Shown one piece after another: positions 16,278 through 63,865 of a DNA stretch of 64,000 nt; the first letter of the stretch is position 1, and every line of letters begins with the position of its first letter. The stretch is taken from the NCBI RefSeq assembly GCF_054482595.1, contig NZ_CM137008.1; one strand, 5' to 3'. A program made the translations under genes and the position numbers. The notes under the pieces were generated by a model. That model was not told where the DNA came from, ran no database searches, and was given only the letters and a program-made list of their open reading frames with translations.

Positions 16278-19212
<2,935 letters not shown>

Positions 19213-22863: not shown

Positions 22864-22957
22864 AAAAAAAAACCGGATGCGAGGCATCCGGTTGAAATAG
22901 GGGTAAACAGACATTCAGAAATGAATGACGGTAATAAATAAAGTTAATGATGATAGC
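22864..22957 (-). ncRNA. micF: micF antisense sRNA (represses ompF)
   Basis: Minus-strand sequence GCTATCATCATTAACTTTATTTATTACCGTCATTCATTTCTGAATGTCTGTTTACCCCTATTTCAACCGGATGCCTCGCATCCGGTTTTTTTT, divergent from ompC. Confidence 0.9.
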
Positions 22958-23276
22958 GGGAGTTATTCTAGTTGCGAGTGAAGGTTTTGTTTTGACATTC
23001 AGTGCTGTCAAATACTTAAGAATAAGTTATTGATTTTAACCTTGAATTATCATTGCTTGATGTTAGGTGCTTATTTCGCCATTCCGCAATAATCTTAAAA
23101 AGTTCCCTTGCATTTACATTTTGAAACATCTATAGCGACAAATGAAACATCTTAAAAGTTTTAGTATCATATTCGTGTTGGATTATTCTGCATTTTTGGG
23201 GAGAATGGACTTGCCGACTGATTAATGAGGGTTAATCAGTATGCAGTGGCATAAAAAAGCAAATAAAGGCATATAA

Positions 23277-30957: not shown

Positions 30958-31330
30958 TGATGTGCCACATCCGGCATGGTATGCCGGATGTGGCGTATGC
31001 TGATAAGACGCGCCAGCGTCGCATCAGGCAACCGGCTTGGGTGTTAGATGTCGGATGCGGCGTAACCGACTTATTCGACCTACGGAGTGGAGCACTTCAC
31101 AGCGGTGTAGGCCTGATAAGACGCGTCAGCGTCGCATCAGGCAACCGGCTCGGACGTTGGATGTCGGATGCGGCGTAACCGCCTTATCCGACCTATGGGG
31201 TGGAGCACTTCACAGCGGTGTAGGCCTGATAAGACGCGCCAGCGTCGCATCAGGCAACCGGCTCGGGCGTTAGATGTCGGATGCGGTGTAACCGCCTTAT
31301 CCAACCTATGGGGTGCCGCACTTCACGGCA
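30958..31330. repeat. BIME cluster: about three tandem ~125-bp units of REP palindromes
   Basis: Repeated TGATAAGACGCGCCAGCGTCGCATCAGGCAACCGGCT...GATGTCGGATGCGGCGTAACCGCCTTATCCGACCTA units read directly. Confidence 0.85.
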
Positions 31331-48654: not shown

Positions 48655-50406
48655 TCATTCTAATGCCTTCTCAATGTTTGTATTTATTTCTGATAAACTA
48701 TTAATTACACCGTCAAATACAAAATCAAGAGCGTTACTATAACCAATTGCTAAAGTAGCTGAATCAAATCCTAGTTTTGCTAAATGCTCAATTGATTTGT
48801 TTACTGCTTCATGAGCTTCAGCATTTCTTAAATCATTATTTATAAAAAACGATGCCACTTTTTTATTTTGAGTTTTAAAATCTGCAAATTCTGTGGCGTG
48901 CTTAAGTACAGATGAGTCTTCATTCTGTTCAATAATTGGCTCGATAAGGTTAAGTAATGATTGAAGTAGTTTCAGAGTTTGGAATTTTTCGATGTCTGAT
49001 TTATTAACACCCATTGCAATTAATAATTTTTTTAAAGAGCCTGATTTAATCTTATTTAAAATCTCATTAATAGTCTTACATCTATTCAAAAAATCCGGTT
49101 CTTGCATGTCATTTGGCGCAACAAATGCTAGCTTCTGCAATACTGGATAGTTAGAGATTCCTTCTGATTCTAACTCTGTGCGATTAATTTCTAAAATGTC
49201 TGCATTGGATAAAGTAACACCAATACTTCTACCAAGTGCTACAAGATTATCGCTAAGTCTTGCTAGTTCTCTAGCGAATTTAAATGTTTTAGATACAATA
49301 TGTTCTCCGCTTAAATCATTTTCAGTGATTTGGTTTGGATCCTTAGCATAATCAAAAACATGATAAACCTCCTCTTCAGGAATTCCTCGATACAGCTCAT
49401 AAAACGGAATTCTGACTAAGTTTCTTCCAACCCTGATGCAATCCCTAAAGGACCATTGTCCACCGTAGCTTGGAGCAACCCTATAAGAATAGCCGTCATA
49501 AAATGGAATAGCATCATATGAAGAATCTTTTTCATATTTAGTAAGGAAAGAGTCATTAACCAAGACATATTCATTGTTTCTGATGTCTTTGGCTCTTGAA
49601 CTCGTCATAGGAGTATCATATCCCGGCCATATTAATTCATCTATATTTAATTTTTTACAAAGTTCAGGCTGAACAGATTGTACACTTCCCCATGCTTGCA
49701 ATAATATATTGTCCCCATTATCTACTATCTCAAAATCTATCCAAGGCAAATCAAACTTGAAATGTTTTGACCCAGACAATAAGTTAATTACTTCCGTCGT
49801 TCTTTGAATACGTGCTTCATAGTAAAAAACACGTACACCAACATAATTTCTCATCCAGAGGTATTTTCTTAGATAATCATTACGCATTGTCCATTTTACA
49901 TCTTTATTACTTCTAAAGTAATACTCGCTTGACACATCCCCTTGTGCGACTCCATAATCGGGCAAGCTTACCTCATCGAAAATGACTTTTTGCTCAGTGT
50001 CACCTATAAGTCTGGGTTTTAGACCAAGCATCATCCATACATCTTCAGCTAAAAAAAATGAAAAGTGAGAACTATCACCCCAAGAAGCTACAATATACTT
50101 ATAACCTGAAATTGATAAACTATAATCTCTTGCTCCGCCTTTAGACCTACAGTCAGGAGTCGAAAATGAAACTAAACCATTAGTAGACTCCTGGAGAACT
50201 TTGATATTATTGATATCTTCTTGTGGTACGGTAGCCATTGTCATATGAGCACACTCATGATTATCTTTAAAAAGATTTTTTTCGTATCTATGTGTGACAA
50301 TGACCTCTTTCTGTGGATTAGTAATATCCTCTATAGATAATAAATCTTTAAGACCTTGAGGGATCTGATCTACTGGTAAAGGTAATTGTGATATATAGTC
50401 AATCAT
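48655..50406 (-). CDS. Hypothetical 583-aa cargo protein (no TM, no recognised NTPase motif), C-terminal Rx4H (HEPN-like) motif; candidate defence/abortive-infection gene
   Basis: Long clean ORF, visibly AT-rich, own ~320-bp AT-rich upstream region, located between att core and int. Confidence 0.7.
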   Translation of the reverse strand: MIDYISQLPLPVDQIPQGLKDLLSIEDITNPQKEVIVTHRYEKNLFKDNHECAHMTMATVPQEDINNIKVLQESTNGLVSFSTPDCRSKGGARDYSLSISGYKYIVASWGDSSHFSFFLAEDVWMMLGLKPRLIGDTEQKVIFDEVSLPDYGVAQGDVSSEYYFRSNKDVKWTMRNDYLRKYLWMRNYVGVRVFYYEARIQRTTEVINLLSGSKHFKFDLPWIDFEIVDNGDNILLQAWGSVQSVQPELCKKLNIDELIWPGYDTPMTSSRAKDIRNNEYVLVNDSFLTKYEKDSSYDAIPFYDGYSYRVAPSYGGQWSFRDCIRVGRNLVRIPFYELYRGIPEEEVYHVFDYAKDPNQITENDLSGEHIVSKTFKFARELARLSDNLVALGRSIGVTLSNADILEINRTELESEGISNYPVLQKLAFVAPNDMQEPDFLNRCKTINEILNKIKSGSLKKLLIAMGVNKSDIEKFQTLKLLQSLLNLIEPIIEQNEDSSVLKHATEFADFKTQNKKVASFFINNDLRNAEAHEAVNKSIEHLAKLGFDSATLAIGYSNALDFVFDGVINSLSEINTNIEKALE

Positions 50407-50728: not shown

Positions 50729-51913
50729 TTAACTGGCTTTAATTTCTCCATGTGGTACGACAACCCAATCAATATGGTTTTGCGTATAAATCTTGGTTGA
50801 CTTGGAGTCGCTGTGCGCCATTCGTGCTTGCGGATCGATACCTTGCTGATCGAAAAGATACGCTGCTAATGCTCTAATTTCGTGAAAGGTTGGTCTTTCA
50901 TCTATCGGTAGATTGTCGCATAAACCTAGCTTGTCACGTGTGGCTGAAAACGACCGGCTCAAATAGTCCGGTGCAACTTGAGTAGGGTGTGAAACCTCTT
51001 TGCTGCGTTTAACCTGCCGTTCAGGGATCCTGTGAACGACAAACGGACTGGCCACATTATCTCGGCTATCATCAATTATTCGTTTCAACTCTTCACCAAT
51101 CGGTATTGCAACGTGTGATGCCTCTTTTTTTTGCACTTTTTGCCTGTGGATGTAAAGCGTCCCATATATGCCATTTTGTGGTTGTTCGAACCAGACACAT
51201 CCACATATACCGTCTTTAGGTTCGCGAATTGAGTAACGGATTCGCGATACTTCGAGTCGTGCATGTGTAGTCTGCAATGCTAGGTCCATTGCTGTTCTTA
51301 ACCATGGTGCAGCGGCCTGCCTGATAGCTATAAAATGCTCGAGTGACAGGCGCCGTCTTTTCTTCTCATCAGTCCTACGCATTTTTTTTCTGATGGCCGG
51401 GTTATCCAGCATTAGTGATTCATCGACCGCATAAGAGAACAACTTTTTAAGGAAGCTGACCTTTCTGTTCTGCACATTTGCGGATGCGCAGGCATGATAT
51501 TTATTGATGTAGGTATTAACGTGTTCAAGTGCAATATCGCATGCTGGAACATTTACGAAAAACGCTTTTACGCGTAGAGCGTCATTTTTCCAGTCATCTA
51601 AGGTGCTCTGGGAAGGACGTTCGTCTTCGATAATCCGGGTCATTATGTGATCAACATGTTCAGCAAATGGTTTTGCTTCTCCGATAACACCGCCAGATTC
51701 TCTAATAAGATTATCTACTGATGGAGATAATTCTGGTCGCATCCTCAGGTTGTACTCTCTGGCGATTGCAATGGCTATTGCCCTATCCTTACCTATATTT
51801 TTCTTCTTTCCGGTAATAAGTGTGAATTTATAAACACCTCGATCTTTATCAAAAATCAGATAATCAGGAAGATGTCTGTATTCTTTTTTACGTGGCCTTG
51901 CCGCCATGGTCAC
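50729..51913 (-). CDS. int: Phage integrase, tyrosine recombinase
   Basis: 394 aa; C-terminal catalytic region with HEIRALAAYL (HxxR) and STKIYTQ (Tyr); overlaps xis. Confidence 0.92.
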   Translation of the reverse strand: MTMAARPRKKEYRHLPDYLIFDKDRGVYKFTLITGKKKNIGKDRAIAIAIAREYNLRMRPELSPSVDNLIRESGGVIGEAKPFAEHVDHIMTRIIEDERPSQSTLDDWKNDALRVKAFFVNVPACDIALEHVNTYINKYHACASANVQNRKVSFLKKLFSYAVDESLMLDNPAIRKKMRRTDEKKRRRLSLEHFIAIRQAAAPWLRTAMDLALQTTHARLEVSRIRYSIREPKDGICGCVWFEQPQNGIYGTLYIHRQKVQKKEASHVAIPIGEELKRIIDDSRDNVASPFVVHRIPERQVKRSKEVSHPTQVAPDYLSRSFSATRDKLGLCDNLPIDERPTFHEIRALAAYLFDQQGIDPQARMAHSDSKSTKIYTQNHIDWVVVPHGEIKAS

Positions 51914-59720: not shown

Positions 59721-60083
59721 TTGTGGAGAAAGTTGATGCGTGATATGTATGAAGTAATGGATCGTTGGGGAGCTTGGGCTGCTTCAGACAATAGCGGAGT
59801 GGACTGGCAACCGGTAGCCGCTGGCTTCAAGGGACTTTTACCTCATGGCAAAAAGTCCCGGATTCAGTGTGATGATGACGAAGGCATTATGATAGACAGT
59901 TGTGTGGCTCGGTTGCGTAAATATAGGCCTGAAGAATATGAGCTAATCATTGCTCACTTTGTTATCGGTATCTCATTACGCACTATTGCGAAGAAGAGAA
60001 AATGCTCTGATGGGACTATAAGAAAAAAGTTGCAAGCTGCATTGGGATTTATTGATGCAGTTATATATATAATACATGGGTAA
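59721..60083 (+). CDS. Late-gene antiterminator Q (QuuD-type)
   Basis: 120 aa; DRWGAWAA...AAGFKGLL...KSR.QCDDD...CSDG... closely parallels QuuD-family Q proteins. Confidence 0.85.
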   Translation: MWRKLMRDMYEVMDRWGAWAASDNSGVDWQPVAAGFKGLLPHGKKSRIQCDDDEGIMIDSCVARLRKYRPEEYELIIAHFVIGISLRTIAKKRKCSDGTIRKKLQAALGFIDAVIYIIHG

Positions 60084-60090
60084 TTTATTA

Positions 60091-60109
60091 GACGGCCATA
60101 TTGGCCGTC
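60091..60109. terminator. Palindromic hairpin GACGGCC-ATATT-GGCCGTC between convergent Q and the antisense cassette
   Basis: Perfect 7-bp inverted repeat overlapping the cassette stop codon; no strong U-run. Confidence 0.4.
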
Positions 60110-61295
60110 AGCTAAATAAATATGTAATAGCATAAGGTGTAAGTAAAAAGTAGAATCTAAATGTAAGATATAAGCCACATAAAACTATAATTCCTAATGA
60201 GGCAAAAACAACTTTCTGAACAAGCAATCTTGTGGTTAAACTATCAAATGTATCCTTTATATCTTCGTAAATAGCCTTGAAGTTATATTCTGCTTGTTGT
60301 TTTTTATGATTTAACTCATCATTTATTGCTGTTAAAGTTTGCCATTGATTAAATAGAACAAATATAATCATAATAGTGAAGAACAATGCACCCAACACTA
60401 CAGCTGTGTTTATTAATGCTTGACTATCCCAACCATTAGCCTGCTTCATTTGAGTCGCAACGATAATTGTTGCGACGGGGATACCTAATATCTGATTTTG
60501 TATGTCACTGAATACTTTATGTATTTTCCCCATCTCTTCTATTTTGGCTACTCGTAACTGATCTAGTATTTTCTCGTAAGAAAAACCAGAAACGAATACT
60601 TTGTATCCTTTTTGATAACTTTCATAAAGTTGTCCTAAATCCCTTAACATGAAGGAAAAAGAGGTTTCTTTAGTTTTAGATTCACATGATGATTTTATAC
60701 TACTTGCTAAAATAGTAAGTTTTTGATCTTTATGCGTATCTTCTGCAAAGTTTGCGATCAAATTATGAATCAGATCTCCATTAACATTCATAAGATCATC
60801 GCTAGAATAATTTACTGGAATTTTTAGTACGTTGGATTCGACGAATACCAATTCAAAATTTGTTTCATCTAAATAAGCAGAACAATCTTTGAATAAAGTA
60901 ATTAAGCTCAAAACATCTCTGTACTTGGATATAATAGCAGGCGACTTTTTATCCCTGTTGTGATAATTAAGTTCGATTATAAAGAAGTTACTGGCTTCCT
61001 TTATCCTATTTTTAGGATTTTTTAAATACTCATTAAAAGAGAAATGTAGCTGCCCCAATCGTAATTTGGGGGGGGTTATATGTAAGGTTATAGTTTGGCC
61101 TAACTCAATGTTGCCAGATTCAAGGGTGATGCCAAAATCATGGGGATTCTCTGTGATATCGTTGATGATGTCACAGAGCTCCTCGTTTGAAAGAATGAGT
61201 GATGCTTCAGATAGGGTACCTGCAAATGTAGCGGCCTTGTAAATAGTCACTAAGTCTTTGAAGGTTCTCTGGTTTTTACTGCTCATCCTCTTCAC
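60108..61295 (-). CDS. Hypothetical 395-aa protein with two C-terminal TM helices; downstream gene of antisense two-gene moron
   Basis: Clean AT-rich ORF; hydrophobic segments ALINTAVVLGALFFTIMIIFVLF and VVFASLGIIVLCGLYLTFRFYFLL; overlaps upstream gene by 20 nt. Confidence 0.75.
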   Translation of the reverse strand: MKRMSSKNQRTFKDLVTIYKAATFAGTLSEASLILSNEELCDIINDITENPHDFGITLESGNIELGQTITLHITPPKLRLGQLHFSFNEYLKNPKNRIKEASNFFIIELNYHNRDKKSPAIISKYRDVLSLITLFKDCSAYLDETNFELVFVESNVLKIPVNYSSDDLMNVNGDLIHNLIANFAEDTHKDQKLTILASSIKSSCESKTKETSFSFMLRDLGQLYESYQKGYKVFVSGFSYEKILDQLRVAKIEEMGKIHKVFSDIQNQILGIPVATIIVATQMKQANGWDSQALINTAVVLGALFFTIMIIFVLFNQWQTLTAINDELNHKKQQAEYNFKAIYEDIKDTFDSLTTRLLVQKVVFASLGIIVLCGLYLTFRFYFLLTPYAITYLFS

Positions 61296-62310
61296 CTAAT
61301 TCTGATAAAATCTCTGATCTTAGCGTATCCGGAATCTCGGTAAGTATCAATTTATCGTTTTCTGAATCATAAAGAACGCTGCCATCATGCAAGGCCGCAC
61401 GCTCGAATTTCAGAGACCAATGTTTGGACTTTCCTTTGAAACTAACAAGCCCACGTATAACGTTGCCATCAGGCACGAACCCATCAGAGAACTCCAGATC
61501 GTCATTGGTTAACTTTTCAACTAACAACTCAGGAGCAGTTGGCCATATCTCGTTTGCAAAAATTTGAGTGTCGAAAGTTTCACCAGAACGATTTAAATTT
61601 TTTAATTTTTCATGAGCCTTATTTAGGAACTCTTCACGTGCCTCTGGTTCAAAACCTCTTTCAGTAGCAAATTCTAAAAGTGCATTCCGTAATTTTGTTG
61701 TTTCTTGTTTGGCAATTAGAATATCGTTGCAACCTAAAAACTTTTTGAAATAACCTGCTACTGAATTTTGCCCCTTTAGAAAGCTAATATATCTCTCTTT
61801 GCCATTCTGGCGCCCAGTTAAGTCAATTCGTCCCGCTACTCGAAGTTTAGCAATGTCTAGATATTCACTTTCTTGAATTTCAAAATCGTGGACTGAAGAG
61901 CCAACTGCTGAAGTTAGGATTGCAACCATCAAATAATGATTTCCATTTACCTCATTATGGGCAATTATTACATAACCACCAGTAGACATTGATTCATCAT
62001 CGGCTCTGGCTTTTAAATGATTGATCATTCGGATACTAGTATCATAAAAACTATGTGTTTTATTTACGAAATAATCATCAACGATATTACCCATAGGGTA
62101 ACTATCGCGGTCATCTTCAAATTTCCCATATCCTTTACCTGCTCTCCCAGAGTACCTTTCAGTAAGTGCGTTAGAGAGGTCTTTTGATGCTTGCTGAACA
62201 GGTTTTTCTGAAGGACAAGGAATAATGGTGGCTAACCCCTGTTGTTCCTTGTTCATAATGTGAACAATAAACTTATGAGTGATATTAGTGGGGGTCGCTG
62301 ATGCAGTCAT
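61276..62310 (-). CDS. Divergent NdpA/YejK-family (NA37) nucleoid-associated-like protein, prophage-encoded
   Basis: 344 aa; blocks GGYVIIAHNEV..YLMVAIL, GRIDLTGRQNGKERYISFLKGQ..VAGYFKKFLG parallel host YejK ([51 protein letters not shown]); RBS AGGA upstream. Confidence 0.75.
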   Translation of the reverse strand: MTASATPTNITHKFIVHIMNKEQQGLATIIPCPSEKPVQQASKDLSNALTERYSGRAGKGYGKFEDDRDSYPMGNIVDDYFVNKTHSFYDTSIRMINHLKARADDESMSTGGYVIIAHNEVNGNHYLMVAILTSAVGSSVHDFEIQESEYLDIAKLRVAGRIDLTGRQNGKERYISFLKGQNSVAGYFKKFLGCNDILIAKQETTKLRNALLEFATERGFEPEAREEFLNKAHEKLKNLNRSGETFDTQIFANEIWPTAPELLVEKLTNDDLEFSDGFVPDGNVIRGLVSFKGKSKHWSLKFERAALHDGSVLYDSENDKLILTEIPDTLRSEILSELGEEDEQ

Positions 62311-62426
62311 AACAACATCCTTTTAATGGTTTTGAACAATTGGTGTTGATAATACTTCAAAAAATACTAATGCGTACGCAAAAAATACAGTACTCTGTTA
62401 AGAGTGGTTACTTCGCCACACAGCTT

Positions 62427-62456
62427 AAACCCGCCGTTGAGCGGGTTTTGTCGTTT
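62427..62456 (+). terminator. tR'-like Rho-independent terminator upstream of lysis genes
   Basis: AACCCGC-CGTTGA-GCGGGTT hairpin followed by TTGTCGTTT. Confidence 0.6.
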
Positions 62457-62600
62457 CTGGGGCTGGGGATTCGTTGGTCCTGGTCTATTCCGCAGTTATC
62501 CATTGGTTCGGCTTCTTTGACGTTTCCGCTTCTAATTTGCTGTACATGATGTTCCCTCAATTTGCACCTGCTGTATCAGCGAGGTGAGAGATAACTACAA

Positions 62601-62927
62601 ATGCCTCATAACCCAAATACCTGGCTGGAGTTGGTCCAGAGCTGGTGGCGTGGAGACACACCACTGGGCGCAGTGATTATGTCGATCGTTATGGCTGGCT
62701 TGCGCATTGCCTATTTTGGCGGTGGTGGTGGCTGGAAGCGAAAAACGCTTGAGATTTTACTCTGTGGCGCTCTGACGCTGACATTTGCATCCGCGCTTGA
62801 GTATGTCGGATGGCCTAAATCACTATCTGTTGCCATTGGTGGTGGGGTGGGGCTGATCGGTGTCGATGCTATTCGTGGGGCTGCAATGCGAGTAATCGGT
62901 AACAAGTTTGGTGGCTCTAAGGAGTAA
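62601..62927 (+). CDS. Holin (class I, S-like)
   Basis: 108 aa, three hydrophobic segments, Gly-rich, immediately upstream of endolysin. Confidence 0.8.
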   Translation: MPHNPNTWLELVQSWWRGDTPLGAVIMSIVMAGLRIAYFGGGGGWKRKTLEILLCGALTLTFASALEYVGWPKSLSVAIGGGVGLIGVDAIRGAAMRVIGNKFGGSKE

Positions 62928-62930
62928 TTT

Positions 62931-63407
62931 ATGCAGGTACTAAATTCCCAGCGTAAAGCTTTTCTCGATATGTTGGCGTGGTCAGAAGGAACGGATAACG
63001 GGCGACAGCCAACCCGCAATCACGGCTACGACGTTATTGTAGGTGGTGAGCTATTCACGGATTACTCCGATCATCCTCGCAAACTTGTCACGCTAAACCC
63101 GCAACTTAAATCAACCGCAGCTGGACGTTACCAGCTTCTTTCCCGTTGGTGGGATGCCTACCGCAAGCAGCTTGGCCTGAAAGACTTCTCTCCGAAAAAC
63201 CAGGACGCTGTTGCACTGCAGCAGATTAAGGAGCGTGGCGCTTTACCGATGATTGATCGCGGTGATATCCGTCAGGCTATCGACCGTTGCAGCAATATCT
63301 GGGCTTCACTGCCGGGCGCTGGTTATGGCCAGTTCGAGCATAAGGCTGACAGCCTGATTGCAAAATTCAAAGAAGCAGGCGGAACGGTCAGAGAGATTGA
63401 GGTATGA
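62931..63407 (+). CDS. R: Endolysin R (lambda-type lytic transglycosylase)
   Basis: 158 aa near-identical to lambda R as recalled ([48 protein letters not shown]...). Confidence 0.95.
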
Positions 63408-63865
63408 GCAGATTAACCGCGATTATCTCCGCTCTGCTCATCTGCATCATCGTCTGCATGTCATTGGCTGTTAATCATTATCGTGATAACGCCATTACCT
63501 ACAAAGCCCAGCGCGACAAAAATGCCAGAGAACTGAAGCTGGCGAACGCGGCAATTACTGACATGCAGGTGCGCCAACGTGATGTCGCTGCGCTCGATGC
63601 AAAATACACGAAGGAGTTAGCTGATGCGAAAGCTGAAAATGATGCTCTGCGTGATGATGTTGCCGCTGGTCGTCGTCGGTTGCACATCAAAGCAGTCTGT
63701 CAGTCAGTGCGTGAAGCCACCACCGCCTCCGGCATGGATAATGCAGCCTCCCCCCGACTGGCAGACACCGCTGAACGGGATTATTTCACTCTCAGAGAGA
63801 GGCTGATCACTATGCAAAAACAACTGGAAGGAACCCAGAAGTATATTAATGAGCAGTGCAGATAG
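63404..63865 (+). CDS. Rz: i-spanin Rz
   Basis: 153 aa near-identical to lambda Rz; N-terminal TM. Confidence 0.95.
63624..63806 (+). CDS. Rz1: o-spanin Rz1 (embedded in Rz, +1 frame)
   Basis: 60 aa lipoprotein [22 protein letters not shown]... with PPPPP tract, nested in Rz. Confidence 0.9.

Follow-up and report, generated by a model that had tools for sequence, protein, structure and literature searches.

A stretch of 64,000 nucleotides (hereafter the window), 100% identical to the DNA of E. coli strain 50EVA (NZ_CP138412.1), includes a prophage in which an uninterrupted open reading frame (60108..61295 (-)) lies close to the lysis genes. The initial annotation of this frame described a membrane-anchored protein, coupled to a gene for an NdpA-like protein, with the build of an abortive-infection effector. 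The question raised by the locus is what such a protein does in a prophage, and for whose benefit. The analysis presented here indicates that the gene probably specifies the membrane-bound effector in an anti-phage module of two genes that the prophage carries and that is of the DS-1 or type II PANGU kind.

The effector open reading frame is genuine, since long frames are improbable by chance at 33% GC and homologues exist. The gene itself is markedly poorer in GC than its flanks (33% versus about 53%), and the same is true of the cassette that it forms with its upstream neighbour (0.33-0.39 versus about 0.53). The start codon had initially been placed at GTG 61295, but both PGAP and an alignment of homologues favour ATG 61286, which lies 9 nt downstream in the same frame. 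Indeed, the N-termini of the homologues match the ATG start, so the GTG codon is probably not in use. The effector gene is thus taken to occupy 60108..61286 (-) and to encode a protein of 392 amino acids (WP_052516676.1), which PGAP lists in strain 50EVA as a 'hypothetical protein' and which is, as set out below, a predicted homologue of DS-1B with a Pag2B-like architecture.

Directly upstream on the same strand lies a gene (61276..62310 (-)) for a YejK-like, nucleoid-associated protein of 344 amino acids (WP_000127202.1), the presumed sensor of the module, which matches the Pfam family NA37 at 9.4e-69. The protein is not the housekeeping YejK: it reaches 164.8 of the 341 bits that the NCBIfam YejK model (NF001557) requires, and its identity to the YejK of the host, which is encoded separately, is no more than 27%. 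The two genes share 11 nt (61276..61286 (-)), from the ATG of the effector to the TAA stop codon of its partner, and the two products are likely to be translationally coupled, as judged from this arrangement. Moreover, a YejK-like gene ends at the effector start on the same strand in each of the 40 IMG/VR loci for which upstream sequence is available, even where the effectors are as little as 23% identical. The effector is obligately paired with an NA37/YejK-like gene, and the coupling to an NdpA/YejK-like gene originally proposed for this locus is upheld by the overlap and by these 40 viral loci. Divergence of the effector and of the nucleoid protein is closely correlated (r = 0.97), a value to which the shared ancestry of neighbouring genes contributes. 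In Xenorhabdus budapestensis (CP072455.1) the NA37 gene is split (247 + 97 aa) while the downstream effector gene is intact, and here the sensor may have decayed with the effector being kept.

The effector belongs to a large family that has gone without a name. A sequence search returned 360 homologues of 23-99% identity, all of them unnamed or labelled 'phage-related membrane protein', and a profile search across 1.84 billion representative sequences gave 1,110 effector-family clusters. The family exceeds 1,000 clusters at 50% identity and extends over several phyla. The Foldseek check suggested for this protein, run against AFDB50, matched 238 clusters, which contain uncharacterised family members only and span Alpha-, Beta- and Gammaproteobacteria, Bacteroidota, Desulfobacterota and one CPR genome. 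A spread of this kind across phyla has been described for PANGU 'Cluster 2'. Searches of family and structure databases placed the protein in no enzymatic family, in agreement with the early statement that it has no recognisable enzymatic motif: Pfam gave a noise match only (YbhQ, E 0.33), PADLOC v2 gave nothing for effector or partner, and a sequence-profile search of the PDB gave nothing meaningful. ClyA-family α-pore-forming toxins and CorA/Mrs2 channels are structural analogues only, at 5-10% identity. Homology to ClyA or CorA was rejected, as there is no sequence similarity, the GMN motif of CorA is absent and long bundles of helices give promiscuous matches.

The closest characterised relative is DS-1, the DefensePredictor system 'D390', which consists of WP_000355468.1, a protein with a YejK domain, and WP_000150292.1 (DeWeirdt et al., Science 2026, PMC13092281). 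DS-1 protects E. coli, reducing the plating of Bas1 by 7.6 logs and that of Bas26 by 2.7 logs in replicated experiments (PMC13092281). Against the NCBIfam model DS1_2_antiphage (NF053869) the window effector scores 70.3 bits (E 1.5e-19), under the 315-bit cutoff, with residues 86-333 aligned to profile positions 36-287 of 337; its partner scores 56.2 bits (E 2.8e-15) against DS1_1_antiphage (NF053868), under the 330-bit cutoff. In direct BLASTP comparison the window pair matches the DS-1 proteins at E 3e-7 (effector and DS-1B) and 3e-10 (partner and DS-1A), with identities of about 25-28%. Comparison of the effector family with the DS-1B family by hhalign gives a probability of 98.7% and E 2.3e-16 over 348 collinear columns. 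On this sequence evidence the effector is homologous to DS-1B over its full length, a relationship at the level of a superfamily and not of equivalogs.

The likeness extends to gene order and to protein architecture. As in the window, the YejK/NA37-domain gene of DS-1 comes first and a gene for a partner of about 400 amino acids follows directly. In DS-1B, as in the window effector, the globular N-terminal domain is followed by a conserved stalk block and, towards the C-terminus, by hydrophobic helices. Common to both effectors are the motifs D-x-H...(Q/E)(K/R) and FS(Y/V)xKI...IP(V/G)A. There are also differences: DS-1A carries an N-terminal, zinc-ribbon-like extension that the partner does not have (391 versus 344 amino acids), and in hydrophobicity the segments of DS-1B fall well short of the first membrane helix of the window effector. 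Furthermore, DS-1 is an experimentally validated system and the window pair a predicted one. The partner has, in addition, been flagged before: WP_000127202.1 appears in Table S10 of DefensePredictor as a 'Predicted novel defense gene', with a log-odds of 9.1.

The window pair also resembles type II PANGU, in which a YejK-like protein, Pag2A, is combined with a transmembrane effector, Pag2B (bioRxiv 10.64898/2026.04.06.716658). In PANGU-Ecu neither gene is toxic by itself, and protection needs both; the growth curves point to abortive infection, with arrest at high MOI and a drop in phage titres (bioRxiv 10.64898/2026.04.06.716658). The N-terminal domain of Pag2B, described as an acidic DNA mimic ('DMK'), binds Pag2A with a KD of 19 nM, and Pag2A-GFP departs from the nucleoid upon infection with T4, a phage on which PANGU-Ecu acts and whose susceptibility is not shared by T1 and T5, which escape PANGU (bioRxiv 10.64898/2026.04.06.716658). 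The logic proposed for type II PANGU is that of a sensor on the nucleoid which is set free when a phage damages the genome. Its loci are bicistronic, with a gap under 40 bp, and couple a YejK-like nucleoid protein to a partner in which an N-terminal domain precedes a transmembrane domain at the C-terminus. The window pair has the same features, namely the 11-nt overlap, the NA37 match of the partner and, in the effector, two C-terminal hydrophobic helices that are also helical in the structural model, and it is this architecture that sets it beside type II PANGU. Type I PANGU, composed of Pag1A and the GRel toxSAS Pag1B, has a similar YejK-like sensor and an effector that is inactive until the sensor binds; however, the type I effector is soluble and works as an alarmone synthetase, depleting ATP and GTP, whereas the window effector is predicted to be membrane-bound and has no enzymatic domain.

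The anatomy of the effector was examined by alignment, hydropathy and AF2 modelling. The modelling, which had been proposed as a check, yielded a globular N-terminal domain, a stalk helix and two C-terminal helices, with a pLDDT of 78.7 for the whole protein. The domain spans residues 9-215 and is followed by a 63-residue helix (217-279) and by helices 288-335 and 337-382, each of about 46-48 residues. The soluble part had been put at about 290 amino acids; the globular domain stands, but it comprises about 215 residues, the remainder being the long helix 217-279. Modelled alone, the N-terminal 222 residues gave a pLDDT of 91.9 and a pTM of 0.86.

The N-terminal domain (60642..61262 (-)) has a predicted α/β fold and contains a conserved motif, F-x2-D-x-H-x2-Q-K-L, at residues 180-190, of which the D-x-H...Q-K part (183-189) is invariant in the effector family and recurs in DS-1B. 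By analogy with Pag2B, this domain is proposed as a candidate docking site for the nucleoid protein. A structure search with it matched no solved fold and no known DNA-mimic fold. The domain is mildly acidic (net -5, pI 5.8; family median net -9, pI 5.3), and this acidity is modest when set against the acidic DNA mimic of type II PANGU.

The best-conserved parts of the family lie outside the N-terminal domain, in the block of residues 224-283 and at N313-Q314. This stalk block (60438..60617 (-)), recognised in the alignment and corresponding to the AF2 helix 217-279, aligns with the equivalent block of DS-1B and ends in ILGIPVATIIVATQM. The latter sequence is a third hydrophobic segment (residues 266-280), short and extremely conserved, that directly precedes the first membrane helix; a rough Hessa-type sum makes it marginal as an autonomous transmembrane helix. 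These sums are approximate and use the scale of Hessa et al. 2005.

Hydropathy supports the two C-terminal transmembrane helices that were read from the sequence at the outset. TM1 (residues about 291-313; 60348..60416 (-)), after which the invariant N313-Q314 pair follows, is strongly hydrophobic, with a Kyte-Doolittle maximum of 2.76, a Hessa-type sum of -3.8 and a family mean hydropathy of 1.74. TM2 (residues about 357-382; 60141..60218 (-)) reaches Kyte-Doolittle values of about 2.0-2.3 and a Hessa-type sum of 0.0 over residues of about 360-382. Between them lies a polar helical connector (residues 314-356; 60219..60347 (-)), rich in K/R and in D/E, whose family mean of 7.1 K+R compares with 1.2 and 0.7 in the other short segments. 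The helices are spaced by about 45 residues, and so the helical hairpin claimed for the C-terminus holds as a pair of hydrophobic helices and fails as a tight hairpin. A topology with two membrane helices and the N-terminus inside conflicts with the positive-inside rule, since the K/R-rich connector would then be periplasmic, and the alternative with three membrane segments depends on the marginal segment 266-280. Upstream of the C-terminal segments, hydropathy revealed no hydrophobic segment at the N-terminus, which indicates that a signal peptide is absent, as first noted.

Together, the conserved coupling, the homology to DS-1B and the architecture of type II PANGU argue for a membrane effector of the abortive-infection type, as the initial annotation had supposed; that the effector disrupts the membrane is our inference. 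The following scheme can be drawn, with sensor release, effector binding and the membrane steps modelled on the published systems. In the lysogen the prophage would express both genes, the paralogous nucleoid protein being held on chromosomal DNA and the effector waiting inactive in the inner membrane. Once a superinfecting phage broke down or remodelled the DNA of the host, the nucleoid protein would come free and could then bind the cytoplasmic N-terminal domain of the effector. Binding would switch the stalk and transmembrane module, probably through oligomerisation, and the switched effector would permeabilise or depolarise the membrane. The infected cell would no longer support the phage, an abortive outcome by which sister lysogens would be protected.

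A cytoplasmic sensor joined to a membrane protein that is thought to collapse membrane integrity is also found in RexAB, in Kiwa (KwaA/KwaB) and among the transmembrane effectors of CBASS, Thoeris and retrons. PADLOC, which was negative for the window effector, revealed no sequence relationship to these effectors, and the window system differs from them in that its presumed sensor is a nucleoid-associated protein and its effector has a large cytoplasmic domain of its own. As to the trigger, DS-1 acts on Bas1 and Bas26 and PANGU-Ecu on T4, and PANGU is evaded by T1 and T5; this difference in range suggests that the signal may not be generic DNA degradation.

A more specific version of the scheme would see in the family latent pore-formers of a new type, with a novel N-terminal fold, in which the stalk and the adjoining hydrophobic segment restrain a ClyA-like hairpin until the nucleoid protein docks. 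In this version the prophage subfamily might also sense something other than degradation of the T4 EndoII type, for example DNA damage or remodelling by siphophages. We regard this as doubtful, but if it were true the family would offer a handle on the gating of a membrane effector by a nucleoid protein. The confident model of the N-terminal domain, the very conserved stalk and the strong transmembrane helices make this protein a good subject for the question of how binding of a nucleoid protein leads to membrane damage.

The pair might instead exclude superinfecting phages while the cell survives, with the effector blocking DNA entry or an early membrane step and the nucleoid protein binding or silencing the incoming DNA. 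Small membrane proteins are frequent among the exclusion proteins of prophages, and a prophage moron that is transcribed against the late direction and encodes an inner-membrane protein together with a DNA-binding partner would suit such a role. However, related or analogous systems abort infection, as seen in growth arrest at high MOI and falling titres, and the nucleoid protein of PANGU moves off DNA upon infection. Moreover, the large conserved cytoplasmic domain and the stalk are better suited to a regulated effector than to a passive block. Non-abortive exclusion is thus judged improbable for this locus.

The position of the pair raises a further alternative, which is that it serves the prophage itself. 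The host element has a lambdoid early region and a myovirus-type tail, and the two genes lie in reverse orientation between the gene for the Q antiterminator (59721-60083) and those for holin, endolysin and Rz (62601-63865). A lysis-timing or holin-like regulator, a tether of phage DNA to the membrane or an addiction module could all be envisaged, given that the pair is directly upstream of the lysis genes, that relatives carry the database label 'phage-related membrane protein' and that the architecture is that of a possible membrane toxin with its binding partner. Against this, the pair is reversed and compositionally foreign relative to the lysis genes, and the genes of PANGU are singly non-toxic. 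Pfam, NCBIfam and PHROGs gave no holin, antiholin or spanin family for the effector, and a role as holin or lysis regulator was rejected on the lack of a holin match and on the opposite strand. The pair also occurs beside tail genes in a Mu-like prophage of Xenorhabdus and in a non-phage island of Methylotenera, where its neighbours are an integrase and two DNA methyltransferases.

The rarity of the pair and the replaceability of its slot bear on the same point. Whereas the flanks are common to about 900 of 5,426 complete E. coli genomes, the whole pair is present in 15 of them, and the slot holds unrelated cassettes in sister phages, so that the pair does not belong to the core functions of the phage. 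The equivalent of the window slot 60084-62600 in Shigella phage SfII (NC_021857.1 35581-37195) contains a reverse-strand pair, SfII_50/SfII_49, that matches the PADLOC candidates PDC-M53A (2.1e-32) and PDC-M53B (2.8e-54). It was considered whether this could be a diverged version of the window pair, and this was rejected, the two being unrelated. The presence of an unrelated pair in the equivalent slot marks it as a swap-in site for two-gene cassettes, and the interval from Q to the holin looks like a hotspot of exchangeable two-gene defence morons. Together, these observations leave a part in the phage life cycle or in prophage maintenance with little probability. Less probable still is that the N-terminal domain of the effector is no DNA mimic but a DNA-binding module (degenerate LAGLIDADG/WhiA-like), with which the effector, jointly with the nucleoid protein, would tether or sense DNA at the membrane.

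The pair sits in this lambdoid prophage as a moron of low GC content and reverse orientation. The intergenic region 62311..62600 is expected to hold the control elements of both strands, with the late promoter region on the plus strand, and the minus-strand promoter of the cassette should lie within it. A σ70 scan for the cassette promoter gave none that was convincing, with fewer matches than in shuffled sequence, and reading by eye was of no help. On the plus strand, a hairpin that resembles a terminator, AAACCCGCCGTTGAGCGGGTTT with a T-run after it (62427-62448 (+)), precedes the holin gene by about 150 nt, as expected for a λ tR'-like terminator that is read through by Q. This position would place the moron between the Q gene and the site at which Q acts. 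At the other end, a GC hairpin (CGGCCA-ATA-TGGCCG, 60093..60107) between the convergent ends of the effector and Q genes is possibly a weak terminator, and was not detected by a terminator scan.

The locus is, to judge from these comparisons, a divergent relative of DS-1 and type II PANGU that was overlooked by standard annotation and anticipated in the literature. The discovery is incremental, as the type of system has been published and the partner had already been flagged by a predictor. Its value lies in extending the class of defence systems that sense through a nucleoid protein to a divergent, prophage-borne subfamily, which PGAP, PADLOC v2 and the NCBIfam cutoffs leave as 'hypothetical protein', and in marking the slot between Q and the late promoter as a place at which two-gene defence cassettes are exchanged in this group of phages.

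Several other features of the prophage and its surroundings were noted. The integration site of the prophage, tRNA-Pro, lies at a distance of about 2.3 kb from the host yejK (yejM-yejL-yejK locus; NZ_CP138412.1 2792113-2793120); as the paralogue and the YejK of the host are so dissimilar, this closeness is probably coincidental. At the far end of the prophage, inside the tRNA-Pro site, a gene with a DUF262 domain lies beside an IS3 element (NZ_CP138412.1 2785704-2787512). Domains of this kind are characteristic of type IV restriction systems like GmrSD, and this gene may be a second item of defence cargo. The left edge of the prophage carries an open reading frame of 583 amino acids (48655-50406 (-); GC 37-40%) that adjoins an integrase-like frame (50729-51913) with weak PHROG integrase matches; the former matched nothing in NCBIfam, PADLOC or PHROGs and is an orphan cargo gene. 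In the chromosomal part of the window, Rfam identified three copies of naRNA4, a REP-derived nucleoid-associated non-coding RNA (19127-19203 (+), 31110-31193 (-) and 31223-31306 (-)), and MicF (22865-22958 (-)), all of which are ordinary features of the E. coli ompC region.
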